Shown piece after piece: positions 6,232 through 58,142 of a stretch of 64,000 bases of DNA (the first letter of the stretch is position 1; each line of letters starts with the position of its first letter). The notes below the pieces were generated by a model. It saw only the letters and a program-made list of their open reading frames with translations. It did not search any database and had not been told where the DNA came from. Source of the stretch: a virus. The translations under genes were made by a program, and so were the position numbers. The stretch is from the IMG/VR virus record IMGVR_UViG_3300017727_001923, positions 33,406 through 97,405 of that record, one strand, 5' to 3'.

Positions 6232-6909
6232 ATGAATTTTATACACGAACAAATTGAACTGACTGAAATGGATGCGGTCACTACCGATACGGGGAGACAA
6301 TACAAAACCCCTGACGGAATCAACCTACCATCTATTACTACAGTACTGTCGATACTGTCTCGTGATTCTATTGCAAAATGGCGTAAACGTGTGGGTGAGG
6401 AAGAGGCAAATCGTGTCTCTACTCGTGCATCTGGACGTGGTACACGTGTTCACGAAATCTGTGAGAAGTATGTAGACAATGACCCAAACTATAAAGAAGG
6501 TTATACACCTGATATCATTGAGTCATTCAATCAGTTGAAACCTATCCTAGATGAACGTCTGACTAAAGTTCATGCACAAGAAGCACCTCTCTACTCTACC
6601 CATCTGGGTGTTGCGGGTCGTGTTGACTGTGTAGGTATCTTTGATGGTAAACTATCCATCATTGATTACAAGACATCTATGAAACCTAAGAAACTAGAAT
6701 GGGTCAAAAATTACTTCATGCAAGAAGCTGGTTATGCTGTAATGTGGGAAGAACGTACAGGAATGCCGATTACACAACTCGTTACTATCATTTCTGTGGA
6801 CAACAATGAACCTCAAGTGTTTATTGAACACCGTGATAACTGGATAAACACATTAAAAAATACCATTAAACAGTACAATGAGGAAAATTCCACTTCCGTT
6901 TTATTATAA
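6232..6909 (+). CDS. PD-(D/E)xK exonuclease (Cas4-like phage exonuclease)
   Basis: PSITTVLS, RGTRVHEICE, GVAGRVDC, IIDYKTS, QEAGYA motifs. Confidence 0.85.
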   Translation: MNFIHEQIELTEMDAVTTDTGRQYKTPDGINLPSITTVLSILSRDSIAKWRKRVGEEEANRVSTRASGRGTRVHEICEKYVDNDPNYKEGYTPDIIESFNQLKPILDERLTKVHAQEAPLYSTHLGVAGRVDCVGIFDGKLSIIDYKTSMKPKKLEWVKNYFMQEAGYAVMWEERTGMPITQLVTIISVDNNEPQVFIEHRDNWINTLKNTIKQYNEENSTSVLL

Positions 6910-6912
6910 ATA
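6905..6912 (+). promoter_or_regulatory. T4-type late promoter
   Basis: TATAAATA at the head of the 6949-13840 cluster. Confidence 0.75.
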
Positions 6913-6948: not shown

Positions 6949-8238
6949 ATGCTTCAGTTTAATCAACTTACAGAAACCTCACTAACCTTTGGGGAAATTG
7001 TGCGTCCTGATAGGGCGTATCGTGCTGACCTATTCATTACTAAGTACAAATCGGGTGAAGCATTCGAGACCACCAAGGGTGATTCGATTGTTCTACAGTA
7101 TGACCCCGCAATTGAAAAGGCAATACGTACAGGTAACAAGAAAGGTTTACCAAAACTAAAGTCACTTGATGGTACGGTCATCGCTTTTGGTCTACTCAAA
7201 AAGACTCTAGAGTTTGGTGGTGGTACATCTGGTTCTGGTGGTGGTTCAGATAATACTCGTGCAACCGAATCCGCACAATGTGTCTATGCACAATTGATGT
7301 GGGACAATCCCAAGACCCAATTCTCACCTGACGAACTCAAGTCTGCATTCCAGAAAACAAATACCGATGCCAAGTTAGACGAGATTCTACTGGGTGATGA
7401 CGAGTGGATTGCATCATCTATTAATGGTGCAAAGATTCTTCATAAAGTATTGAAGAAGAAACAGTATACGTGGCATCGTGGTTCACAGTGGGTGTCTAAA
7501 CTTGAAGAAGTATACAAGAAACTCAATCGTGAAGAGAAACTATTCAGTAACGTAAACAAATGGACTCCCGCAGATATATGGGCAGTTGCTCGTGGTGCAG
7601 AAAACAAATACAACATTCATGATGCACTAAGTTTCTCAGAACTTAACAATGAACTCTTGAAAGCATATGCCGCTCGTGATATAATGGGTATATCACTCAA
7701 GAAGATTGGGAAGAAACCTAAGTTGTCACAAGTAAATTTCCGTAAACCGTTTGTTCCACCTCAGTTTACCAAACAAACATTTGGTAAGAGAAACTTCTAT
7801 GGTGCAATGGACGGATACTTATATGGGTCTGGTGGATTCCAATTACAGTTCCGATTATTCCCAACCTTCCAATGTGAAATTATTGGTAAGAAAGCAAAAC
7901 ATGGTAAGGTGTCCTTTGGTGGTATCAGTGATGCAATGAAGGAAGCGACTGGTAGACCTCTGACACAGAAGAAAGTCGTTGAACAATTACTTCTGAAAAA
8001 CCCACAACAATTCTATGATAACTTCTGGAAGAACTATTCAATGACTACTGAGAAAGAAAGTAAAGATGAACTGTTTAAGAATCTACAGAAGAAAAAGTTT
8101 GAATGGCAAGTATCTAAATACATGGTAGTAGAACTATTTACTGCAATCAAAGGTCGGGAACAACAAGTACTTGACTATTTGGTTCGTATCGCAAAGTCAC
8201 AAACAAAGAACTCTGCTGTTCACTTGAAGGTGTCGTAA
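6949..8238 (+). CDS. restriction-endonuclease-like (PD-(D/E)xK variant) protein with CTS-like N-terminus
   Basis: ESAQC, KWTPADIW, MGISLKK pattern; N-terminus MLQFNQLTE. Confidence 0.5.
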   Translation: MLQFNQLTETSLTFGEIVRPDRAYRADLFITKYKSGEAFETTKGDSIVLQYDPAIEKAIRTGNKKGLPKLKSLDGTVIAFGLLKKTLEFGGGTSGSGGGSDNTRATESAQCVYAQLMWDNPKTQFSPDELKSAFQKTNTDAKLDEILLGDDEWIASSINGAKILHKVLKKKQYTWHRGSQWVSKLEEVYKKLNREEKLFSNVNKWTPADIWAVARGAENKYNIHDALSFSELNNELLKAYAARDIMGISLKKIGKKPKLSQVNFRKPFVPPQFTKQTFGKRNFYGAMDGYLYGSGGFQLQFRLFPTFQCEIIGKKAKHGKVSFGGISDAMKEATGRPLTQKKVVEQLLLKNPQQFYDNFWKNYSMTTEKESKDELFKNLQKKKFEWQVSKYMVVELFTAIKGREQQVLDYLVRIAKSQTKNSAVHLKVS

Positions 8239-9458
8239 TGAAGTTTAATGATTTTATAACAGAACAGAAAAACACTCACATGACCCACATTGAGGATAAG
8301 GTTCTCTATGGGGGTGTCAATGGTACACGTCAAGCAATCAATGCACTACGTGAACTCCGTGACATGTTATCTGGACAAACTGACTCTAAACTGTCCACAA
8401 AATGGGATGGCGCTCCCGCAATCTTCTGTGGTCAAGACCCTAGTGACGGAAACTTCTTTGTTGCGAAGAAAGGTATCTTTGCGAAGAATCCTAAAATCTA
8501 CAAGTCTGAAGCGGACATTAAAGCGGACATGAGTGGTGACCTTGCAGACAAGATGAGTCTTGCATTGAAACATCTACCAGAACTTGGTATTAAAGGTGTG
8601 ATTCAAGGAGACTTCTTGTTTTCAAAACCAGACGTTAGTACCGATACTATTGATGGTCAGAAGTATACAACCTTTCACCCGAATACAATCATCTATGCAA
8701 TACCCTATGACCAAGCGGATGCAGTCCGTAAAGCAAAGATTGGTATTGTATGGCATACCACATATACTGGTAAAGACTTTATGTCGATGAAAGCGACATA
8801 TGGTGTAAACGTGTCGAAATTTAAGAGTTCTGTAAACATATGGTCACAGGATGCAATGTTGCGTGATGTGTCTGGTGCGACTATGAATAAGAAAGAATCC
8901 GCAGAGGTAACCAAACATTTGTCCGATGCGGGTAAGATATTCAATAAGATATCTGGTTCTACTCTGCGTGAGTTAGAAAATAATAAAGACCTTGCAACCC
9001 TGATTGAACAGTACAATAACACTTTTGTGCGGAATCAAACTGTGATTGGCAACACTAATACGCACGTTCAAGGTCTAATCAAGTGGTTGAACGAAAAATT
9101 TAAGAAAGAAGCAGATAAACGTAGTACTGATAAAGGTAAGATGGTACAATTTAAGAAGTTAGAAGAGTTAATGAAGTTCTTCTCTCCAAGAAATAAAAAG
9201 AACTTAGTTGCAATGTTTGACTTACAAAAGAATATAGTTCTTGCAAAATTAAAACTTATAAATAAACTTAATAGCATAAGTTCATATGACACCTTTGTTC
9301 AGACCAAGAAAGGTTATAAGGTAAAGACTGGTGCAGAAGGATTTGTTGCTATTGACAAACTGGGTGGTGATGCGGTCAAGTTGGTTGACCGTCTTGAATT
9401 TTCATATAATAACTTCAGTCCAGATATACTGAAGGGATGGGATAAACCAAAGAGGTAA
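8238..9458 (+). CDS. RNA/DNA ligase-like nucleotidyltransferase (DUF6267-like)
   Basis: TKWDG (motif I), QGDFLF (III), EGFV (IV), VKLV (V); N-terminus MKFNDFITE. Confidence 0.65.
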   Translation: MKFNDFITEQKNTHMTHIEDKVLYGGVNGTRQAINALRELRDMLSGQTDSKLSTKWDGAPAIFCGQDPSDGNFFVAKKGIFAKNPKIYKSEADIKADMSGDLADKMSLALKHLPELGIKGVIQGDFLFSKPDVSTDTIDGQKYTTFHPNTIIYAIPYDQADAVRKAKIGIVWHTTYTGKDFMSMKATYGVNVSKFKSSVNIWSQDAMLRDVSGATMNKKESAEVTKHLSDAGKIFNKISGSTLRELENNKDLATLIEQYNNTFVRNQTVIGNTNTHVQGLIKWLNEKFKKEADKRSTDKGKMVQFKKLEELMKFFSPRNKKNLVAMFDLQKNIVLAKLKLINKLNSISSYDTFVQTKKGYKVKTGAEGFVAIDKLGGDAVKLVDRLEFSYNNFSPDILKGWDKPKR

Positions 9459-9461
9459 ACT

Positions 9462-9845
9462 ATGTCCAAACCAATAGGACTAAAAGAATTCTTAAAAATT
9501 CTAGAGCAACCAGACGAAGCGTTGAATATGCAACAACGTATGAAACTGGCACGTTCGCTCAAGAAGAATAAAGCAAAAATTGCAATGGGTCGCAAACGTG
9601 CGGCACGTAAAGTTGCATCTCCAGAGAAACTCAAAAAACGTGCAATGAAACAAGCACGTATGACTTTCCTCAAGAAAATCACTAAAGGTGCTGATAAGGG
9701 TGACCTATCTATGGGTCGTAGAGCATCAATTGAGAAACGCCTAGATAAGATGAAACCCAAAATACAGAAACTCGCAAAGAAATTACTTCCAAAAGTTCGT
9801 AAGGGTGAATTGGAACGTAAACGAGGTGGAAACAAAAGTGATTAA
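9462..9845 (+). CDS. highly basic hypothetical protein, probable internal head protein
   Basis: 127 aa, very K/R-rich; N-terminal LKEFLKILE. Confidence 0.65.
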   Translation: MSKPIGLKEFLKILEQPDEALNMQQRMKLARSLKKNKAKIAMGRKRAARKVASPEKLKKRAMKQARMTFLKKITKGADKGDLSMGRRASIEKRLDKMKPKIQKLAKKLLPKVRKGELERKRGGNKSD

Positions 9846-11226
9846 AGATTTTAAATCATATCTAGTCGAAGAGGCAAAAGAAGTTTATTTTACATTTGGT
9901 AGAATGAACCCGCCTACGATTGGACATGGAAAAGTATTAGATACTATAGCAAAAAAAGCAAAGGGTGCAGACTATAAAGTCTATGTATCCCAATCAACGG
10001 GCGCTAAAGACCCGTTGTCATATTCTGACAAAGTAAAACACCTACGTAAGATGTTACCAAAACATGGTCGTAATATCATGGTAGATAAAGGTGTAAGAAA
10101 TGTATTTGATATTGCTGCAAAATTGTATGACCAAGGATACAAAAAAATAACCATGGTAGTCGGTGAAGACCGTCTCCGTGAGTTTGAAGTATTGTTGAAC
10201 AAATACAACGGTAAGAAAGCACGTCATGGGTTCTATAACTTTGAATCAATCAATGTTGTATCTGCGGGAAGGAGAGACCCAGACGCAGAAGGTGTGGAAG
10301 GAATGTCTGCATCTAAACAACGTGCGAACGCAAAGGACAATGATTATCAAGCGTTTATTCAAGGTGTTCCATCTGGAATGTCTGACCGTGATACACGTAA
10401 GTTGTTCAATGATGTAAGGAAGGGGTTAGGTCTCAAGGAAGAGACATCTTTCAAACGTCATATTGAAATGGGTCATCTTTCAGAAACAAGAGAACAATTC
10501 GTCAAAGGTGAGTTGTTTGAACTTGGTGATACTGTTGTTATTAAAGAAAGCGAAGAGGTCGGTGTCATTACAGTCCTTGGTGCAAACTATGTCATTGTAG
10601 AATGTGGTGACAGAAAGATGCGTAAGTGGTTAGATGCAGTAGAATTAGTAGAGAAGAAAGCTGTACAAGACCCTGACATCAAAGACAAAGAAGGTACTCA
10701 ACCCGCCAAGTATCACAAGGGACTAAAGAAGTCTACTAAAAACAAACGTGACGCACACTTCAAGAAACATGGTAAGAAAGCAGACGATGATGAGTCTGCA
10801 TATAAGCCAGCGCCTGGCGATAAGACCGCAAAGACTAAACCATCCAAGTACACCAAAGCATTCAAAGACATGTATGACGAAGATTGTTGGGATGGGTACA
10901 AACAAGTTGGTATGAAGAAAAAAGGTAACAAGAGTGTTCCTAATTGCGTACCAGTAAATGAGTATGGCGGCCCTAAAATCTCCAAAGCAGATTACCTGAA
11001 GAAACAACGTAGTGGTATTACTATCTCTACATCCGAAAATGCGGGTGAAGAAGGAACAAATAAACTTCTCAAGAAGTACAAAAAAGATACTCCAATGGAA
11101 GATGCAGTCGCAAACGCAAAAGATAGAATCAAAGCAGAGAAGGAAAGGGACAAAAAGAAACATGATGGAATTCTTGACCGTGCCAGACTTGCTCGTGCAA
11201 AAGCAAAAAATAGGGAAACCAAGTGA
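9838..11226 (+). CDS. HxGH cytidylyltransferase/NMNAT-like nucleotidyltransferase with charged C-terminal extension
   Basis: FTFGRMNPPTIGH (HxGH-like), GMSASK (KMSKS-like); GTG start at 9838 with GAGGTGG SD; N-terminus MIKDFKSYLVEE. Confidence 0.8.
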   Translation: MIKDFKSYLVEEAKEVYFTFGRMNPPTIGHGKVLDTIAKKAKGADYKVYVSQSTGAKDPLSYSDKVKHLRKMLPKHGRNIMVDKGVRNVFDIAAKLYDQGYKKITMVVGEDRLREFEVLLNKYNGKKARHGFYNFESINVVSAGRRDPDAEGVEGMSASKQRANAKDNDYQAFIQGVPSGMSDRDTRKLFNDVRKGLGLKEETSFKRHIEMGHLSETREQFVKGELFELGDTVVIKESEEVGVITVLGANYVIVECGDRKMRKWLDAVELVEKKAVQDPDIKDKEGTQPAKYHKGLKKSTKNKRDAHFKKHGKKADDDESAYKPAPGDKTAKTKPSKYTKAFKDMYDEDCWDGYKQVGMKKKGNKSVPNCVPVNEYGGPKISKADYLKKQRSGITISTSENAGEEGTNKLLKKYKKDTPMEDAVANAKDRIKAEKERDKKKHDGILDRARLARAKAKNRETK

Positions 11227-11450
11227 ACAAATTTAATCAACATATCGAAGAAGGTGCGTTGGCAGACAAGTCCAAGAAGTCTGGTATCTCTGTAGACACT
11301 CTTCGCAAAGTTTATAATCGTGGTGTTGCCGCATGGAAGACTGGTCATAGGCCAGGCACTACCCCTCAACAATGGGGATATGCACGTGTGAACGCCTTCA
11401 TAGTAAAGAAGAAAAAAGGTGGGTTGAACCACGATAAGGATTTAGCGTAA
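11223..11450 (+). CDS. small conserved phage protein (DUF5824-like), CTS-like N-terminus
   Basis: MNKFNQHIEEG; LRKVYNRGVAAWKTGHRPG..PQQWGYARVNAF. Confidence 0.7.
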   Translation: MNKFNQHIEEGALADKSKKSGISVDTLRKVYNRGVAAWKTGHRPGTTPQQWGYARVNAFIVKKKKGGLNHDKDLA

Positions 11451-12637
11451 TGAAAACATTAGAACAAATACTCGAAGGTAAAGACTTCGAACCTCATATG
11501 ATGTATGACCCAAAGACTGGTAAAGGTTACAAGGCAGAAAAACCTGAAGACCATGAACGTATGAAGAAGATGGGATACTCTCACGAGAAACCAGAAGTCA
11601 AAGAAGACTTAAAAGAAGAGATGATTTCTTACAGAGTTAAGAAGATGCAGAAACCTGAAGAAGATAAGTTTCAAAAATCTGCTAAGATGATGGGTTTAAA
11701 GTATACTAGTAATAAAGGTAGAGACGATACAGTAATCGTTATAAGTGGCACTAAAAAGAAACTCAGAGACTTTGATTCAGTAGTTAGAGGCAAATCATCA
11801 TACGGTGACCCTTCAACAATCAAACATTTTGACGAAGGTTCGTTCTGGGGTCAAGACAAAATGGCAAAATCTATAGACAAAAAGATGTCAAAGACTCATG
11901 TCAGACTTACAAGAGACAGTAAGGGTGGATACGAAAGAGCGACAATACCTAAGAAAGACAAAAAGAAAATTGCACAAATGAAGAAAGACGGATACAAAAT
12001 AGACCCTACGTTTTCTAAAGAGTCTTTAGATGAACAACACCAAGAAGCATTAGATATGTTGCAAGAAAACTACAGAACTCTTGCACGTAAAGGTATGGGT
12101 ACTGAGACTAAGAAGGATGCACGAGTAGGTTTGGAGTTAGATTTCTATGAGACTGAACGTGGTGACAAAGTATTCGGTAAGATTATCAAAGTAACTGGTA
12201 CTGGATACACTGTACAAGCAATGGAACGTGGTAATAGTAAGAAGTATACCTTCAAGTTCCATGACCGTGCAAAAGCAAAGAAACTTCTTGAAGCAAGAGA
12301 CTTCATGGAAAACTACCGTGCAAAACGTGATGCAATGAGAGATATGCCTAAACGTGGAAAAGACTCTGCGGATGATGACATTGAAGCGAATGACGATGAC
12401 CGTAAAGCTGCATCTAAGAATGTTCTTATGCAAATCCGTAAAGCATCTGACCTACCTAAAGGTGGCCCGATTGAATTTGAAGGTGGTAAGAAAGGTAAGA
12501 TTTCACAAGACGATGCAAAGAAAATATCTAAACTATTTGATATATTAAAGAAACCATCTGACAAACAAAAGTTTCAGAAAGTAATATCAAAAGACTTGAG
12601 AAGTATTCAAGCACTATTAAAAAGGTTAGGTAAATGA
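11450..12637 (+). CDS. charged hypothetical protein, probable processed internal head protein
   Basis: MKTLEQILE; several internal (L/M)xE sites (DLKEE, MLQEN, KLLEA, FMEN). Confidence 0.65.
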   Translation: MKTLEQILEGKDFEPHMMYDPKTGKGYKAEKPEDHERMKKMGYSHEKPEVKEDLKEEMISYRVKKMQKPEEDKFQKSAKMMGLKYTSNKGRDDTVIVISGTKKKLRDFDSVVRGKSSYGDPSTIKHFDEGSFWGQDKMAKSIDKKMSKTHVRLTRDSKGGYERATIPKKDKKKIAQMKKDGYKIDPTFSKESLDEQHQEALDMLQENYRTLARKGMGTETKKDARVGLELDFYETERGDKVFGKIIKVTGTGYTVQAMERGNSKKYTFKFHDRAKAKKLLEARDFMENYRAKRDAMRDMPKRGKDSADDDIEANDDDRKAASKNVLMQIRKASDLPKGGPIEFEGGKKGKISQDDAKKISKLFDILKKPSDKQKFQKVISKDLRSIQALLKRLGK

Positions 12638-12843
12638 AAGATTTAAAGAATTTTATGGAAGCAAAAAAGATGAAAGGACTGAGTCTTTATGGTTCTGAAA
12701 TATCGAACATAAAAGGAAAAGACGGTAAACTATATAATGCAAAACCCGTACTTATGGGTGGTAAATTATCATATAGAGTTGAAGACCAATTTGGTAAATT
12801 TGAAACTCTTCCGTTAAAAAAATTCGCTGCTAAGTTCGGTTAG
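12634..12843 (+). CDS. small basic protein, CTS-like N-terminus
   Basis: MKDLKNFMEA; ATGA overlap. Confidence 0.7.
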   Translation: MKDLKNFMEAKKMKGLSLYGSEISNIKGKDGKLYNAKPVLMGGKLSYRVEDQFGKFETLPLKKFAAKFG

Positions 12844-13098
12844 ATGAAAAAGTTTAGTGCATTCTCTACAATCTATGAGGAAGAAAAACGTCTTCATAAA
12901 TTAAAAGAAAAAAGTATGTTAATTACTGGAGATGACCACGCCCTAGATATAGTTCTAGGAGACTTAAAAAAGAAAATGTTTAATAACATTCGACATAACA
13001 AAATGGGTTTTGTGAATGGTATTGCAAAGATGGTAAGATATAAGTTGGATAAGGCTAAGCAACAAAAAGGTAAAGTGGCACTAGTGCCGATTAAATAG
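12844..13098 (+). CDS. small basic protein, CTS-like N-terminus
   Basis: MKKFSAFSTIYEEE. Confidence 0.65.
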   Translation: MKKFSAFSTIYEEEKRLHKLKEKSMLITGDDHALDIVLGDLKKKMFNNIRHNKMGFVNGIAKMVRYKLDKAKQQKGKVALVPIK

Positions 13099-13099
13099 T

Positions 13100-13840
13100 A
13101 TGCCTAGAAATTATAAAAAAGAATATGAGAATTATCATTCTCGACCTGACCAAAAGAAAAGACGTGCAGCACGTAATGCCGCTCGTAAAATGCTAAAGGG
13201 AAGAAAAGAACTTACCGATGAGAAAGATGTTCATCATAAGGATAATGACCCATTAAACAACGATAAATCTAATCTCTCTATTGTATCACAAAAGTATAAC
13301 AGAAGAGAACCTAGATTGAGGACTGAAATGAAAACATTTAGTGACCACTGTAAATGTGGACACGAATCTGGACTAGTAGAGAGTAATCTTTACAGAGTAG
13401 GTTCAGAAGCGTATTTTAAATACTGGAGAGACATTCGAGAAGAGTGGGAAAAAGGTAACGTAATGATTGAACCATCTGAAGTGGAAATCATGGAAGGTGA
13501 CCTTGGTAAATTCGCACGTTTTAATAATGAGAATGTTGCACTAGATTGTATCTTCGAAGAGGAGAAACAACCAGAACTAAACAAACCAAAAGCGGGTGGG
13601 CCGAAGAAATACTATGTGTATGTCAAAGACCCCTCTTCTGGTAATATTAAAAAAGTATCTTGGGGTGACACCACTGGACTCAAAGTCAAGTTGAGTGACC
13701 CGAAGGCACGTAAGTCATTTGCTGCAAGACATGATTGTGCAAATAAGACAGACAAAACAAAAGCGGGATACTGGGCATGTAGATTGCCTAGATATGCTAA
13801 ACAATTAGGATTAAGTGGTGGAGGAAATTTCTTTTGGTAA
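13100..13840 (+). CDS. HNH-like N-terminal domain fused to DUF6321-like phage domain
   Basis: KDVHHKDNDPLNNDKSNL (HNH); GGPKKYYVYVKDP..KKVSWGD..ARHDC..YWAC C-terminus. Confidence 0.7.
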   Translation: MPRNYKKEYENYHSRPDQKKRRAARNAARKMLKGRKELTDEKDVHHKDNDPLNNDKSNLSIVSQKYNRREPRLRTEMKTFSDHCKCGHESGLVESNLYRVGSEAYFKYWRDIREEWEKGNVMIEPSEVEIMEGDLGKFARFNNENVALDCIFEEEKQPELNKPKAGGPKKYYVYVKDPSSGNIKKVSWGDTTGLKVKLSDPKARKSFAARHDCANKTDKTKAGYWACRLPRYAKQLGLSGGGNFFW

Positions 13841-14103
13841 AACCTTATACTGAGTTGAAGTGTAGTAATGGTAAGATAAGGGTTTTTAGGGAAAATGTCA
13901 AAGAAGAAGATTTAATCTGGCACAGAGATTTAAAAGATAGAAGTGTACATGTACTGGAAGGTCATGGATGGTGTTTACAGAAGGATAACGAAGTACCACT
14001 TGACCTGTTAGAAGGACATACTTACAGTATTAACAAGATGGAATATCATCGTGTTATTAAAGGTAAAGGTGATTTGGTTATTAGAATATATGAAGGTACT
14101 TAA
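13834..14103 (+). CDS. small cupin-like protein
   Basis: LIWHRD.KDR.VHVLEG.GW...YHRVIKG. Confidence 0.6.
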   Translation: MVKPYTELKCSNGKIRVFRENVKEEDLIWHRDLKDRSVHVLEGHGWCLQKDNEVPLDLLEGHTYSINKMEYHRVIKGKGDLVIRIYEGT

Positions 14104-14782
14104 TGTAATTTATCGTGGTGGGGCTGGTGGTGAATTTTTTGGTGGACTCTTACAAGAACTTGAAGAGATTGCAACCAAAGAAATCATAACTAATCCTGAG
14201 ACGGAAAGATGGTTTTTGAAGAGAGAAGATTACCAGTCACATGAAATAGAAGTGACCAGAGGGAATCCTAGAGAAGTTCAGAAACCAAAATGGGATAAAG
14301 ACTTGTGGAATGTTAGACTAGACCACGGGTATGGATTCCCAATTAATCAAGAGTTCTGGACAGAGTATTGTTGGAACGATTGGGATGAGACGAAGACTAT
14401 TGTGTTCCTCTCAAAAACTAGAGAAAGTTTGGATTATACTCAACAACTTGCAAAGTGTAAGTTAGTTAGAGATGAAGACAGAGAAGCTGGTATGAATATG
14501 ATTAAGGATGGTATTCTTGCTCATGACCAGTTTTGGAATAGACCGTGGGAATCACAGGCAGAGATGTTTGCGATGTGGATGGATACAATACCCACAGAAC
14601 ATTCCATGTTATTGGTTGACCCTTGTGAGTTGTTTTTTAATAACAAGGATGATACCAAGACAGAATTAAAGAGAGTCAGTGAATATTTGGGTATGAAAAT
14701 ACCAAGTAACTGGCAAAATAAGGTAGAAAGTTATAGAGTTAGAAATCAAACTCTTATAAATAACACTATAACTTACATTTGA
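14090..14782 (+). CDS. sulfotransferase-like (P-loop fold) hypothetical protein
   Basis: VIYRGGAGGEFF N-terminal loop; RLDH. Confidence 0.45.
   Translation: MKVLNVIYRGGAGGEFFGGLLQELEEIATKEIITNPETERWFLKREDYQSHEIEVTRGNPREVQKPKWDKDLWNVRLDHGYGFPINQEFWTEYCWNDWDETKTIVFLSKTRESLDYTQQLAKCKLVRDEDREAGMNMIKDGILAHDQFWNRPWESQAEMFAMWMDTIPTEHSMLLVDPCELFFNNKDDTKTELKRVSEYLGMKIPSNWQNKVESYRVRNQTLINNTITYI
14755..14762 (+). promoter_or_regulatory. T4-type late promoter
   Basis: TATAAATA upstream of 14795. Confidence 0.7.
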
Positions 14783-14794
14783 TGGGAACAAGTA

Positions 14795-15109
14795 ATGCCA
14801 CAAGAAACGCAATCAGCTAAACTTACTAGAATAGAAGTAGAATCTAGCAACAGGTTTGACCGAATTGAGAACAAAATCGACAAGCTTGCTGAGGCATTAG
14901 TAGCACTTGCTCGTGTCGAGGAAAAGATGATATCAGTGGAACAGAACAATAGTAATAACTTCGACAGAATGAATCGTTTCTCTCAGAAGTTAGATGAGAT
15001 AGAAAAAAAGGTTGATGCAAATGCAGCAACTGTTTCAATAATTAACAAAGTAGTTTATTTAATAAGTGCGGCAATAATTGCTAGTGCTGTAAAATTCTTT
15101 TGGATGTAG
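14795..15109 (+). CDS. coiled-coil protein with C-terminal transmembrane helix
   Basis: Heptad-like RFDRIENKIDKLAE; hydrophobic C-terminus. Confidence 0.7.
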   Translation: MPQETQSAKLTRIEVESSNRFDRIENKIDKLAEALVALARVEEKMISVEQNNSNNFDRMNRFSQKLDEIEKKVDANAATVSIINKVVYLISAAIIASAVKFFWM

Positions 15110-15120
15110 GAGAACATAAC

Positions 15121-16365
15121 ATGAGAACTAAAGATATGAAATCGCTAATGGATGCCTACAACCAAGTCATCCTCGGTGAATCAGTAGAAATTGACGAAGC
15201 ACGTCAAATGAAAGACCCTAAGAAAGACTCTATGGTCTCTAAGGGTGGTAAAACAATCGTAATCGATAAGTCAAAAGAGAAAGAATACCTCAAGAAAGGT
15301 TGGTCTCTCGCAGAGAAGAAGAAACTTGACCCTGTCGATGACAAAGCAAACGATAAGAAATTCAAAGACCGTAAAGACAAAGACATCGACAATGATGGTG
15401 ATGTAGATAGTTCTGACGAATATCTTCACAAAAGACGTAAAGCAACCGATGATGCAATCGATGGTGGTAAAAAACCTGCTAAGAACGAAGGTAAAAGAGG
15501 TTTTATCAAAGCTGCTAAAGACGCAAAAGCAAAAGGTGAAAAAGACTTTATGTTTGCGGGTAAGAAATACAATTGCGAAGATGCATTGAACGGAGACGAA
15601 GAAGAGTCCGAAGATAAACCTAAGAAGAAGAATCCTTTTCCACCTAAGAAAGACGGTGAAGAAAAAGATGAGAAAGATTCTGAAGATAAGGATGATGACA
15701 AAGAGTCCGATGACGAAGAAGAGAAAGAAGTACCTAAAGTAGCTGGTAAGAAAGATGACAAGAAGAAAGTTGCATCTAATGCCAAGACTGCCGAAATCTC
15801 TAAGATTGGTGAAAACTCTGCGGATGCAAAAGCGGCTGGTGTTGGAAGAACAGGTGAGACTTACAGAGACAGAATGAAAAGATTAGGTAAGACACAATCT
15901 GAATCATTAGACTTAGTTGATGCAATTAAAGACCTACATAAGATGTGGGAAAGTGCTGCAAAGAAGAGTGTTAAAGGTGCTACAGATAAGGGTGAAGAGA
16001 TTGATTCTAAACAGTCACCTAAGTCTAAAGAATTTGACAACGCTCATGATAAGTCTGATAAGAAAGTTGAAGACAATGTCGAAGATGCAAAAAAGAAAAA
16101 CAAAGTTGCTCAAGACGCAACTAAGGCAAAGTCTGGTAAACGTCCTGTAGACCACGAAGTTGGTGACAAGAATGTTGTTAAGTCTACCGAAGTTAAGGAA
16201 GACGCAGAACAAATAGTTAAACAAGCACAGGATATCATTCAAGGTAAGACTATGTCTGAGATTGCTGACTTAAACTCTGAGAAACCAAAGAATCCTCATG
16301 ATGCACGTACTAGAGAAGCAAAAGCATTCTTGAAACGTATGGCTAAGAAACAAGGTACAGTATAA
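15121..16365 (+). CDS. highly charged (K/D/E-rich) probable head core/internal protein
   Basis: AGGAG SD; low-complexity charged sequence; DIDNDGDVDSSD EF-hand/dockerin-like loop. Confidence 0.65.
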   Translation: MRTKDMKSLMDAYNQVILGESVEIDEARQMKDPKKDSMVSKGGKTIVIDKSKEKEYLKKGWSLAEKKKLDPVDDKANDKKFKDRKDKDIDNDGDVDSSDEYLHKRRKATDDAIDGGKKPAKNEGKRGFIKAAKDAKAKGEKDFMFAGKKYNCEDALNGDEEESEDKPKKKNPFPPKKDGEEKDEKDSEDKDDDKESDDEEEKEVPKVAGKKDDKKKVASNAKTAEISKIGENSADAKAAGVGRTGETYRDRMKRLGKTQSESLDLVDAIKDLHKMWESAAKKSVKGATDKGEEIDSKQSPKSKEFDNAHDKSDKKVEDNVEDAKKKNKVAQDATKAKSGKRPVDHEVGDKNVVKSTEVKEDAEQIVKQAQDIIQGKTMSEIADLNSEKPKNPHDARTREAKAFLKRMAKKQGTV

Positions 16366-21408: not shown

Positions 21409-21416
21409 TATAAATA
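21409..21416 (+). promoter_or_regulatory. T4-type late promoter, 5 nt upstream of ATG
   Basis: TATAAATA-GAACT-ATG(21422). Confidence 0.8.
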
Positions 21417-49444: not shown

Positions 49445-49470
49445 GTTTAAGAGCTAAAAAGGTATAAATA

Positions 49471-49906: not shown

Positions 49907-49929
49907 AAAGAGGACTTTATGTCCTCTTT
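49907..49929. terminator. bidirectional terminator between convergent units
   Basis: AAAGAGGAC-TTTAT-GTCCTCTTT with T-runs on both strands. Confidence 0.65.
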
Positions 49930-50597
49930 TTCTTTTCTCTCTCTTGTTTAATCCACTTCTTCGCTTTACTATTATCTACTGGACTACGTAAGAACTTCTG
50001 AATATCTCTATATGCACGTAGAGTTTCTGCCTTGTAGTCTTTACCGTCTGAGTTATCGACAATCAACATATCCTTCTTACCAAACATCTGTTGAAATGCA
50101 CCGATGTTCTTTTGAACAGTCTTCCAGTATGAAGTTACTTCTTTCTCACCAATAGTACGGTCACGTTCGGAGTCTCGTTTGATTGCAGTTTCTAGGTCAG
50201 TGTTTACAAATATCATTGCAGTATCATAACCTAACGCTTCCATTGACTGTACTTGTTTCTTAACCTTTGGAAAATCTTTACCAGTACCATCAATAACTAC
50301 ACCAAGTCTACCCATAAGGTATCTTGCTTGTTTCTTACCTGTTAATGCCTTTGCACGTCCACGAATATCTTGACCTTGAACTGAGAAGATGTTTTCAGGA
50401 GACATTTCAAGTCCTGCTTTTTTCATTGCAGATTCATATGCGTCATCCGAATTAACTACCTTCAGACCGAGGGCGGGGAGACCCGTTTTCCCGACAATGA
50501 AGGACTTACCACTGCCTGGCCCGCCTGCTAGGAAAACTGCTTTAAAGATTGCGGGGTCATCCACACCCTCTGTCATAAACTTTTTAAACTTAATCAT
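49917..50597 (-). CDS. P-loop kinase (zeta-toxin/AAA_33-like) with CTS-like N-terminus
   Basis: AVFLAGGPGSGKS, VVNSDD, VIDGTG, R...R; N-terminus MIKFKKFMTE. Confidence 0.8.
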   Translation of the reverse strand: MIKFKKFMTEGVDDPAIFKAVFLAGGPGSGKSFIVGKTGLPALGLKVVNSDDAYESAMKKAGLEMSPENIFSVQGQDIRGRAKALTGKKQARYLMGRLGVVIDGTGKDFPKVKKQVQSMEALGYDTAMIFVNTDLETAIKRDSERDRTIGEKEVTSYWKTVQKNIGAFQQMFGKKDMLIVDNSDGKDYKAETLRAYRDIQKFLRSPVDNSKAKKWIKQEREKKKRT

Positions 50598-52501: not shown

Positions 52502-52509
52502 TATTTATA
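52502..52509 (-). promoter_or_regulatory. T4-type late promoter, 5 nt upstream of ATG
   Basis: Minus strand TATAAATA-GAACT-ATG; a second TATAAATA lies at 52564-52571. Confidence 0.8.
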
Positions 52510-52533
52510 CCTTTAAATAATTGTAAAAAACAC

Positions 52534-52562
52534 TTGACAAAGTGTGTTTTATCCTGTATAGT
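52534..52562 (+). promoter_or_regulatory. sigma70-type early promoter
   Basis: TTGACA-17-TATAGT; ACACTT-GACA-AAGTGT inverted repeat over the -35 box. Confidence 0.75.
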
Positions 52563-52587
52563 GTATTTATATAGTCTGGAGATATAG

Positions 52588-55624: not shown

Positions 55625-55687
55625 ACGAAACTATATTATGAATAAAGTGGATAAACTAAAATACGCAAATATACGGAGAATATAAAT

Positions 55688-56605
55688 ATGTCTTTTGCAA
55701 ACTTAAAAACCAATCGTACCGATGTGTCCAAACTGGCATCTGCCGCACAGGAAATGTCTGGTACAAAACAAACTAACAAATACGAAGATACTCGTTTCTG
55801 GAAACCAACTGTTGATGACAGTGGTAACGGATATGCAGTTGTTCGTTTTCTTCCTGCCGCAGAAGGGTCAGAATTACCATGGGTAAGATACTTTGACCAT
55901 TTCTTTAAAGGGCCAACAGGTCAATGGTACGTTGAGAAGTCTCTGACTACTCTAGGTAACAATGACCCAGTGAGTGAATATAACTCACGTCTTTGGAACA
56001 CAGGTATCGATGAAGACAAAGAAACTGCACGTAGACAGAAGCGTAGACTTCACTATGTTGCAAACATCTTAGTTGTTAGTGACCCATCTAATCCTACTAA
56101 CGAAGGTAAAGTATTCCTTTATGACTTCGGTAAGAAAATCTTTGATAAGGTTATGGATAAGATGCAACCTGAATTTCCTGGCGAAGAACCAATCAATCCA
56201 TTTGACTTTTGGACTGGTGCGGATTTTCAACTGAAGATTCGTAATGTTGCGGGTTACAGAAACTATGATAAATCGGAGTTCAAAGTCGCTTCTGCATTGT
56301 TTGAAGGTGACGAAACTAAACTCGAAGCAACATACAATCAGTTACATGATTCAAGTGAGTTTGCTGATACTGGTTCATACAAATCTTATGACGAACTGAA
56401 AAGTCGTTTAGAGGTTGTACTGGGTCAATCAACTGGGTCGGGTTCAACGGTAAAGAATGATTCTTTAACACAGACTGCGGAAGTAGTTGCTGCTAAAGAA
56501 AAAGAACCACAAGTTCTTGCATCTGCACCAGAACCTAATATCACAGCATCGACTGACGAAGATGATACTTTATCATACTTCGCAAAGTTAGCTGCTGAAG
56601 ACTAA
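55688..56605 (+). CDS. gp32: single-stranded DNA-binding protein gp32
   Basis: MSFANLK, DTRFWKP..D..GNGYAVVRFLP, KIFDK, PFDFW.GADF.LK, acidic DDTLSYFAKLA tail. Confidence 0.96.
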   Translation: MSFANLKTNRTDVSKLASAAQEMSGTKQTNKYEDTRFWKPTVDDSGNGYAVVRFLPAAEGSELPWVRYFDHFFKGPTGQWYVEKSLTTLGNNDPVSEYNSRLWNTGIDEDKETARRQKRRLHYVANILVVSDPSNPTNEGKVFLYDFGKKIFDKVMDKMQPEFPGEEPINPFDFWTGADFQLKIRNVAGYRNYDKSEFKVASALFEGDETKLEATYNQLHDSSEFADTGSYKSYDELKSRLEVVLGQSTGSGSTVKNDSLTQTAEVVAAKEKEPQVLASAPEPNITASTDEDDTLSYFAKLAAED

Positions 56606-56666: not shown

Positions 56667-58142
56667 ATGAAAAAAATAATATTAATATTAGCGTTGATGT
56701 CATTTAACGTTAATGCAAATGAAATCGAAGAAGTTGTTGTAGTAGGTGCAAAAATATACCAAGGTGTTGCAGACCCTACCTCAGACAACATATTAACAAC
56801 AATCGAACCTACCAAACCATTCGTCCTTGGGGCATTTAATGGTCTTCAATTGTCTGGAACAGATACAAAACATACTGGTGTTTTTAAGAACGGTATCCCA
56901 GTAAATGACCCTAGTTCTGGATGGTATGACTTTGGTCAAGACCTATCAACTAATCAAAGGGTTACAATTATATCTGGTGCAAACAGTGTTAGATATGGTA
57001 GTGGTTCAATGGCAGGAGTTGTTCTATTAGAGGATGACTTTGGAAAAGGATTCTATACCACAGTATCGACAGATAAAACTAAGATGATGGTAGAGCATGA
57101 ATTCTTTCAAATCGCAACTTATCGTGGAACATCTGGTTCAGTTAAGACAGACAACGATGAAGTCGATTGGTATGAAAACAAGACATTTAAATTAGGACAT
57201 GATATCTACAATCTAGAAGTTGTAGACTACTCGTATGATTATGACGGTTGTTATAATGAATACTTTGTATTGACTGACGATTGTAATGTTGAAGGTCAGA
57301 AGATTAATGTTTCAATTGACCATGATAGATTTACTCTAGGTCATACTACAAATGAATCAATCTATAATACTGGAACTGTAATTGAGTCCGATAGAACTTA
57401 TGGTGATATCCTTTTATATGATGACAATGGTCATGAACTAGGTGTCACTGCACAGAAAGAAACTTACGGTGAGAGAAAAAGATATACAAACGCTGCTTAC
57501 TATATTTGGTCTAATGACAATGTAAGTCTTGGATATAGGTATGAAGAAGGTGAACGTATTGTAAGACTAGGATTAGAAAACAATGGATATAGATTCTCTA
57601 TGGGTAATAGTTATCGACTACCTAATCTATACGAACAGTTTGGTGATTCTTGGGTATCAGCAAATCCTAACTTGTTACCAGAACAAGGACGTGGAACTGA
57701 ATTAGGATACAAAGGATTATCTCTGTATTACTATAAGTTTGATGAAGGAATAGATTTTGATATGAATGCTTATTCTTATATCAACACTGGTGAATATAGG
57801 TCTAGAGGTATTAGATTAGAAAAGAACATTGGTAAGGTATTTGTATATGGTGAGATTACAGATTCAGATAAACTAAGAGTTCCAAACTATAGAACAAAGA
57901 TTGCATATACAGACTATGGATTTACTATTGAGTATCTAGGAGAGTTTGATAAAGGTGTTGACTTTGATGGTAGACTAATTGACGATGTCAGTACATTTAA
58001 TATCAGTTATAGTTTCACTAATGGTGCAATAGGTACTTACAAACTTGAGATAGAAGACGCATTAGATAACTCGTATGAGTATATTCCAGACTATGCGGCT
58101 GGTGGACGTATCTTTAGACTTAGTTGGAATCTTTTATGGTAA
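56667..58142 (+). CDS. TonB-dependent outer-membrane receptor (BtuB-like)
   Basis: Signal peptide MKKIILILALMSFNVNA; TonB-box-like EEVVVVG; plug NGIPVND...SGANSVRYGSGSMAGVV; GNSYRLPNL..NPNLLPE; C-terminal GRIFRLSWNLLW. Confidence 0.88.
   Translation: MKKIILILALMSFNVNANEIEEVVVVGAKIYQGVADPTSDNILTTIEPTKPFVLGAFNGLQLSGTDTKHTGVFKNGIPVNDPSSGWYDFGQDLSTNQRVTIISGANSVRYGSGSMAGVVLLEDDFGKGFYTTVSTDKTKMMVEHEFFQIATYRGTSGSVKTDNDEVDWYENKTFKLGHDIYNLEVVDYSYDYDGCYNEYFVLTDDCNVEGQKINVSIDHDRFTLGHTTNESIYNTGTVIESDRTYGDILLYDDNGHELGVTAQKETYGERKRYTNAAYYIWSNDNVSLGYRYEEGERIVRLGLENNGYRFSMGNSYRLPNLYEQFGDSWVSANPNLLPEQGRGTELGYKGLSLYYYKFDEGIDFDMNAYSYINTGEYRSRGIRLEKNIGKVFVYGEITDSDKLRVPNYRTKIAYTDYGFTIEYLGEFDKGVDFDGRLIDDVSTFNISYSFTNGAIGTYKLEIEDALDNSYEYIPDYAAGGRIFRLSWNLLW

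Follow-up and report, generated by a model that had tools for sequence, protein, structure and literature searches.

A T4-type capsid-targeting leader as the probable packaging signal of unrelated basic, partly enzyme-like proteins in a marine T4-like phage

Main finding and the phage

The stretch analysed in this work, hereafter called the window, comprises 64,000 nucleotides (bases 33406-97405) of the IMG/VR record IMGVR_UViG_3300017727_001923, a 149,135-bp single contig of a marine T4-like phage. Twelve proteins encoded in it had been predicted to begin with short sequences resembling the capsid-targeting sequence (CTS) of the T4 internal proteins (IPs). With a probability of roughly 0.7, the shared N-terminus of 9 to 15 residues is a T4-type capsid-targeting and processing signal carried by an enlarged, partly enzyme-like cargo, so that about 11 unrelated basic proteins are probably packed into the virion. 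The genes bearing this leader are referred to below as tagged genes and are named by their window coordinates (Table 1).

The contig contains genes coding for a T4-type portal, an S77 prohead protease, a gp22-type scaffold, gp23, gp32, UvsY and baseplate proteins, and its G+C content is 37%. Its nearest deposited genome is that of phage C48C1 (Kyanoviridae), and the remoter relatives include Pelagibacter phage HTVC008M, Methylophilales phage Melnitz, Stenotrophomonas phage DLP_6 and T4-like cyanophages; a megablast search of the region against phage records gave no match. Marine metagenomes are rich in this lineage, with thousands of homologs, many of them located on contigs of about 145 kb.

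The leader and its likeness to the T4 sequence

All twelve of the listed N-termini are present at their coordinates. Eight of them are canonical, with hydrophobic residues at positions 4 and 7 (a shift of one residue being allowed) followed by a PHI-x-E triplet, PHI standing for a hydrophobic residue, namely those of 6949, 8238, 9838, 11223, 11450, 12634, 22012 and 49917. Three more (9462, 12844 and 13328) are longer variants, and the 20-residue N-terminus of 15121 is of a different type. The T4 CTS is MKTYQEFIAE (Mullaney and Black 1996, as summarised in PMC9026906 and PMC8442874), in which residues 4 and 7 serve targeting and residues 8 and 10 serve processing (PMC9026906). The claimed likeness to this sequence was borne out, as the leaders agree with it at the residues that matter in T4 and their (L/I/M/F)-x-E ends match the motif of a prohead protease of the gp21 type, which the phage encodes. 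The mature bodies of the twelve proteins are unrelated to each other, as had also been proposed, with all pairwise BLASTP E values above 0.6.

Two of the leaders, those of 9838 and 11223, begin with GTG codons, each preceded by a good Shine-Dalgarno sequence and each backed by the gene calls of metagenomic relatives. The GTG start of 9838 is further favoured because the next ATG would delete the β-strand before the HIGH motif (FGRMNPPTIGH). The N-terminus MKTFSDH at 13328, described in the original prediction as internal, behaves as a gene start of its own: the ATG has its own GAGGA ribosome site, and in a relative the orthologous module is a separate gene starting MKRFDEH...SLIE, while in the window a 76-residue HNH open reading frame (ORF) is fused in frame ahead of it.

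A related observation concerns C48C1, whose deposited cytidyltransferase coding sequence (CDS) starts at an internal Met; an upstream in-frame GTG (10640-10684) adds (M)IKNFSQYLLE and the conserved strand, and judging by these residues the CDS is annotated too short.

Head maturation machinery

Searching the genome proteins with Pfam matched Peptidase_S77 (E=2e-39), T4_CASP, which is the gp22-type scaffold (E=2e-65), Gp23 and Portal_T4, so both a gp21-type S77 protease and a gp22-type scaffolding core are encoded by the phage. Analogy with T4, together with the Pfam Gp23 domain beginning at residue 68, predicts GFMTE/N (the slash marks the cut) as the site at which gp23 is matured, and the leader of the kinase 49917 ends in FMTE/G, with the same four residues before the cut. 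The protease itself has the N-terminus MKLITE, to be compared with the LIE found near the N-terminus of T4 gp21.

Between the portal and protease genes, outside the window (genome 141302-141523), there is a gene coding for a 73-residue basic protein starting MKSYKEILQELSE; it is preceded by a TATAAATA motif of the late-promoter-like type described below and its product probably corresponds to the small T4 head-core proteins.

Conservation and modularity of the leader

The DUF6267 family, to which the product of 8238 belongs, was sampled as 150 representatives, one per 50%-identity cluster, and the domain start was located in 137 of them. In about 91 of these the domain is preceded by a short N-terminal extension and in 22 by a long one, while 24 lack any. 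The consensus of 36 canonical ten-residue leaders is MKSFKQFLTE, with F at position 4 in 31, F or Y at position 7 in 31 and L or I at position 8 in 33 of the 36, while positions 2, 3, 5, 6 and 9 are variable; E at position 10 was the selection criterion. Among relatives more than 80% identical, the nine-residue leader changes at positions 2, 4 and 5 only and the following QKNTHMTHIEDK is invariant. In the family of 6949, E9 is invariant and leaders like MKTFKSFLSE are followed by SLTFGEI, the conserved beginning of the mature part, and the leader of the kinase family (49917) behaves in the same way. The codons vary among the leaders, which argues for selection on the peptide and not on the DNA.

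The leader is also gained and lost as a unit. DUF6267 leaders are present in C48C1, DLP_6, Melnitz and HTVC008M, and cyanophage DUF6267 proteins start with MAKNTHLEHLED, which is exactly the mature start predicted for the window protein, the leader being absent. In the long DUF6267 fusions PHI-x-E often stands immediately before the domain. A 650-residue protein of Melnitz corresponds to three window genes (9838, 11223 and the 13328 module), each of which has its own leader in the window, and its fusion junction reads FQLDE/K. In the AlphaFold models of the 8238 and 6949 proteins (predicted local distance difference test, pLDDT, 93.4 and 89.6) the leader is the sole N-terminal segment below 50.

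The same arrangement may be followed along the genomes: the protein of 600-650 residues encoded in Melnitz (10631-12583) and HTVC008M (10401-12191) is represented by three separately tagged genes in the window (9838-13840), among which three unrelated tagged genes are inserted.

Enrichment and charge

A strict rule modelled on T4 asks for hydrophobic residues at positions 4 and 7 and for Glu at position 9 or 10; 9 of the 195 N-termini of the genome satisfy it, against 2 expected (P=2e-4). Among the eight consecutive genes from 6949 to 12844, three to five match depending on the rule used, with P from 6e-5 to 3e-8. A profile scan, as had been proposed, was run, here with a position matrix trained on 41 ten-residue DUF6267 leaders, all from other phage lineages; at a score of at least 10 it found five N-termini in the genome against 0.06 expected (P=7e-9), namely those of 9838, 49917, 11223, 8238 and the 73-residue gene that immediately precedes the protease gene and lies outside the window. 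The spacing of the matrix is fixed, which lowers the scores of nine-residue leaders like MKTLEQILE.

These numbers bear directly on the idea that the leader is a chance resemblance in a proteome rich in Lys, Glu and Phe. The motif is short and its loose versions have a background frequency of 1-4%, which speaks for chance, but the result of the independently trained matrix, the clustering of the matches in adjacent genes and the retention of the leader in hundreds of diverged homologs belonging to three families make it very improbable.

After the predicted cut, the isoelectric point (pI) exceeds 9.5 in 10 of the 11 tagged proteins, and that of the eleventh is 8.5. The median pI of the genome is 5.7 and 23% of its proteins are above 9, which gives P=3e-6 for the basicity of the tagged set. 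The T4 internal proteins are likewise highly basic.

Late-promoter motifs and expression

The position behind late promoters given for nearly all of these genes in the original prediction agrees with the distribution of late-promoter-like motifs. The TATAAATA motifs lie almost exclusively on the coding strand, upstream of genes including those for the tail sheath, baseplate and head-core proteins, and they head all four operons with tagged genes (at 6905, 14755, 21409 and, on the minus strand, 52509/52571). A scan for sigma-70 promoters and terminators was uninformative. A 'cytidylyltransferase' from a field metatranscriptome was considered as evidence on the timing of 9838 and set aside, being a different, heptose-pathway gene, and the supplements on phage P-HM2, where expression timing was sought, do not mention a 9838-type cytidylyltransferase.

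Some TATAAATA motifs are located only 0-6 nt from a start codon (55681-55688, 49463-49470, 21409-21416 and genome 141289), for example at the gp32 gene. A normal mRNA leader with its ribosome site would not fit into this spacing; late transcripts starting here may be leaderless, or else the motif may serve some second function.

Virion proteomes of related cyanophages

In CsCl-purified virions of phage S-SZBM1 the cytidylyltransferase S-SZBM1_140, which starts with the leader MRFRQFIIE, was detected together with two neighbours, and the adjacent S-SZBM1_141 (DUF6267) and S-SZBM1_142, both leaderless, were not. The protein gp154, present in purified S-CREM2 virions, starts with the leader MKNFSSFLTE, and NMNAT-like proteins are present in the virions of S-SCSM1 and S-CBWM1. 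The CTS is not mentioned in the cyanophage proteome papers, and no open-access paper linking it to cyanophages was found.

Virion detection also bears on whether the tagged proteins stay in the head at all. The leader might be a propeptide removed by the protease or a handle for core assembly, with the proteins being degraded or serving assembly and no cargo being retained and delivered. In T4, cleavage at PHI-x-E also affects gp22, gp67 and gp68 of the core, which are for the most part lost from the head; in addition, the tagged proteins contain many internal PHI-x-E triplets and the small head-core gene beside gp21 has the same leader. On the other side stand the peptides of the orthologous cytidylyltransferases in mature CsCl-purified virions, and the fact that folded enzymes with conserved catalytic residues and a uniform, DNA-compatible basic charge suit retained cargo better. 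We therefore regard a disposable propeptide as unlikely, though it is the strongest competitor of retained cargo.

Several points weigh against the proteins being a CTS-loaded cargo. Four of the twelve members (9462, 12844, 13328 and 15121) depart from the canonical leader in length or form. Matches to a loose regular expression exceed expectation only 2-4 fold, so that the motif alone carries little information, and UvsY (MINLESILAE) is a false positive of the rule, matching by chance. The tagged genes may also be read from upstream promoters. The authors of the proteome studies considered the enzymes as perhaps virion-borne but contamination by abundant proteins as also possible. Finally, S-SZBM1_191 and S-SZBM1_192 have canonical leaders and are missing from the list of 30 virion proteins, a list that also misses 8 of the 32 predicted structural proteins. 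These two proteins, encoded in the structural region (record 122311-123125) and not discussed in the paper on that phage, start MKSFKSFLSE and MKTFKQYITE.

The weak enrichment of the loose pattern and the match of UvsY, together with the abundance of MK- starts and of AAA and TTT codons in a genome with this G+C content, may also be taken to mean that the N-terminus has nothing to do with the capsid and reflects a generic preference, either for A/T-rich codons that promote the initiation of translation or for an amphipathic N-terminal helix with some other role. Yet abundant late structural proteins lack the leader, conservation is seen at the hydrophobic and Glu positions and not in the codons, the gain or loss of the leader occurs at the exact domain boundary, and the leader co-occurs with basic charge and late operons. 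A generic preference is thus judged quite unlikely, somewhat more so than a disposable propeptide, and a T4-type packaging signal is preferred.

The candidate cargo proteins

The presence of enzyme-like proteins in the candidate cargo, also foreseen, was upheld for three of them: an RNA-ligase-like DUF6267 protein, a putative HIGH-motif nucleotidyltransferase and a P-loop kinase of the Zeta/AAA_33 type. Their coordinates, together with those of the other tagged genes and the late-promoter-like motifs, are given in Table 1.

Table 1 Candidate cargo genes and late-promoter-like motifs in the window (pLDDT, confidence of the AlphaFold model; aa, amino acids)
Feature	Coordinates	Strand	Leader or N-terminus	Remarks
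Basic protein of 429 aa, unassigned fold	6949..8238	+	MLQFNQLTE	pLDDT 89.6, residues 1-8 below 50
DUF6267, RNA-ligase-like covalent nucleotidyltransferase	8238..9458	+	MKFNDFITE	Pfam E=3e-103
Very basic protein of 127 aa	9462..9845	+	MSKPIGLKEFLKILE (15 residues)	pI 11.4 after leader
HIGH-motif nucleotidyltransferase	9838..11226	+	MIKDFKSYLVE	GTG start; relatives named 'cytidylyltransferase' or NMNAT-like
DUF5824 C-terminal module of 75 aa as a separate gene	11223..11450	+	MNKFNQHIEE	GTG start
Basic, mostly low-confidence protein of 395 aa	11450..12637	+	MKTLEQILE	
Basic protein of 69 aa	12634..12843	+	MKDLKNFME	
Basic protein of 84 aa	12844..13098	+	MKKFSAFSTIYE (12 residues)	
HNH ORF (residues 1-76) fused to cargo module	13100..13840	+	MKTFSDH...LVE	Ancestral start at ATG 13328
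Lys/Asp/Glu-rich protein of 414 aa	15121..16365	+	Longer, different N-terminus ending LGE	Weakest member
Basic protein of 53 aa	22012..22173	+	MKKFRDFEE	
P-loop kinase of 226 aa (Zeta_toxin/AAA_33-like)	49917..50597	-	MIKFKKFMTE	
TATAAATA late-promoter-like motif	6905..6912	+		37 nt upstream of the first tagged gene
TATAAATA motif	14755..14762	+		Upstream of genes 14795 and 15121
TATAAATA motif	21409..21416	+		Upstream of genes 21422 and 22012
Two TATAAATA motifs	52502..52571	-		Head the operon whose last gene codes for the kinase

The DUF6267 protein shows family invariants that correspond to ligase motifs I (KxDG; K55/D57/G58), III (G124/D125), IV (EG; E367/G368) and V (K381). Its model, in which residues 1-9 are below 50, aligns with RNA ligases (REL1, NgrRnl, T4 Rnl2 and Trl1) at Z 8.0-8.2 over about 180-200 residues; Foldseek against the PDB returned weak DNA-ligase rows only (E ~0.1), and PDB sequence searches with the 8238 and 9838 proteins gave nothing significant. 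The 9838 protein matches Pfam CTP_transf_like at 19.6 bits, under the 21-bit cut-off, and PHROG 'cytidyltransferase' families at E=8e-70, and it carries C-terminal modules related to DUF5824. It has FGRMNPPTIGH where the HIGH-motif nucleotidyltransferases show a GxFxPxHxGH-type motif on a Rossmann-like fold. The 11223 gene encodes such a module on its own, which in Melnitz and HTVC008M sits within a single long protein. The HTVC008M ortholog of the kinase is located within the cargo cluster.

The product of 6949 may have a new fold or be a very divergent nuclease. The best VIA-align Z score of its model is 4.0, Foldseek found no match in the PDB and a PDB sequence search gave nothing significant. 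The invariant PADIW and SLKK segments of the family recall PD-(D/E)xK nucleases, with invariant D209 and S249-L-K251, MspI at Z 2.9 and a weak neighbour in the Atlas, but the nuclease idea stays a lead because no structural match exceeds Z 4.

Five of the tagged proteins (9462, 11223, 12634, 12844 and 22012) are small and very basic and are the closest analogues of the T4 IPs. The C48C1 ortholog of 9462 has the canonical leader MLSFKQFVSE, and that of 22012 starts with MKTFQEFMKQFEE, which is nearly the T4 CTS. Relatives of 11450 have the leaders MKKLTQITE and MKTFKELTE, and an Atlas search with this protein returned nothing; an NCBIfam search gave nothing useful.

The 76-residue HNH ORF (HNH_3, phrog_4590; window 13100-13327) reads without a stop into the 13328 module, and relatives lack the HNH part; it resembles a mobile endonuclease that has settled between cargo genes. 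Two further features lie apart from the cargo. A 491-residue protein with a clear signal peptide is encoded directly after the gp32 gene (56667-58142). Just upstream of the window (genome 31212-33032) there is a gene for a 606-residue protein with CHASE2 and guanylate/adenylate-cyclase domains, adjoining a FecR-like gene and several genes for signal-peptide proteins, which is unusual for a T4-like phage.

Comparison with known packaged proteins

The tagged set resembles IPI, IPII and IPIII of T4 in that a tag of about ten residues, with aromatic or hydrophobic residues at 4 and 7 and an I/L-x-E end, is attached to unrelated basic proteins in a phage with homologs of gp21, gp22 and gp23, and in that the leader MKTFQEFMKQFEE of a relative is almost the T4 sequence. 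It differs in comprising about 11 tagged proteins against three, several of them enzyme-like and of 24-51 kDa, and in having leaders of 9 to 15 residues and no body homologous to the IPs. Together with Alt, the tagged cargo of T4 amounts to four proteins. Alt, an ADP-ribosyltransferase (ART) that is injected and acts before phage transcription, offers a parallel for the enzymes, since it is carried in the head and processed by gp21 at its N-terminus, as well as being cut at its C-terminus; the candidate cargo of the window belongs to other enzyme classes, with no ART domain found.

Orthologs of 9838 in S-SZBM1, S-CREM2, S-SCSM1 and S-CBWM1 occupy the same conserved gene block, between the helicase gene and nrdA/gp61, and were repeatedly detected in purified virions. 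The difference is that S-SZBM1 has about three leader-bearing genes and a DUF6267 protein devoid of the leader, and that the papers give no loading mechanism. The cargo had been called unusually large, which is a relative statement, about 11 candidates here standing against the four of T4 and the three of S-SZBM1. Giant phages (SPN3US, phiKZ-like phages) likewise contain many head-internal proteins, including enzymes, with propeptides removed by a prohead protease, but with another protease family, cleavage logo and virion architecture. As for the ATP-dependent RNA ligases (T4 Rnl2 2hvq, NgrRnl 5cot, Trl1 6n0t and T. brucei REL1 1xdn), DUF6267 resembles them in the adenylyltransferase-type fold of its model and in the KxDG, GD, EG and K invariants, and differs in Z scores at the edge of significance, the marginal Foldseek E value and a large helical insert.

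Proposed mechanism and implications

We infer the docking, cleavage, retention in the phage, ejection and timing of action as follows. The tagged proteins would be made late in infection together with the head proteins, and the hydrophobic residues at positions 4 and 7 of the leader would dock them onto the gp22-type scaffolding core during prohead assembly. The gp21-type S77 prohead protease would then cut after the Glu of PHI-x-E, as in gp23, and the basic mature proteins would remain in the head with the DNA. This cargo would consist of the RNA-ligase-like enzyme, the HIGH-motif nucleotidyltransferase, the P-loop kinase, several small very basic proteins and two large proteins with no function assigned, and, by analogy with IPI and Alt of T4, it would be ejected along with the DNA and become active in the cell just infected.

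A more specific and rather doubtful possibility is that the ligase-like enzyme, the P-loop kinase and the NMNAT-like nucleotidyltransferase make up a repair kit packed in advance and injected with the DNA, which would undo the damage of host abortive infection (such as cleaved tRNA or depleted NAD) before any phage gene is expressed. Its modules would be supplied either as one polyprotein cut by the head protease, as in Melnitz and HTVC008M, or by separately tagged genes, as in the phage described here.

The authors of the virion proteomes could only speculate on how the cytidylyltransferase or NMNAT-like proteins had entered the particles, or suppose contamination, and a T4-type leader offers a concrete loading mechanism. 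It also allows the packaged proteins of this abundant marine phage group to be predicted by a simple rule on the sequence, and it could be used to load foreign proteins into them, as is practised with T4. If ligase-like, kinase and nucleotidyltransferase cargo is indeed delivered with the DNA, it would constitute a counter-defence acting before transcription.

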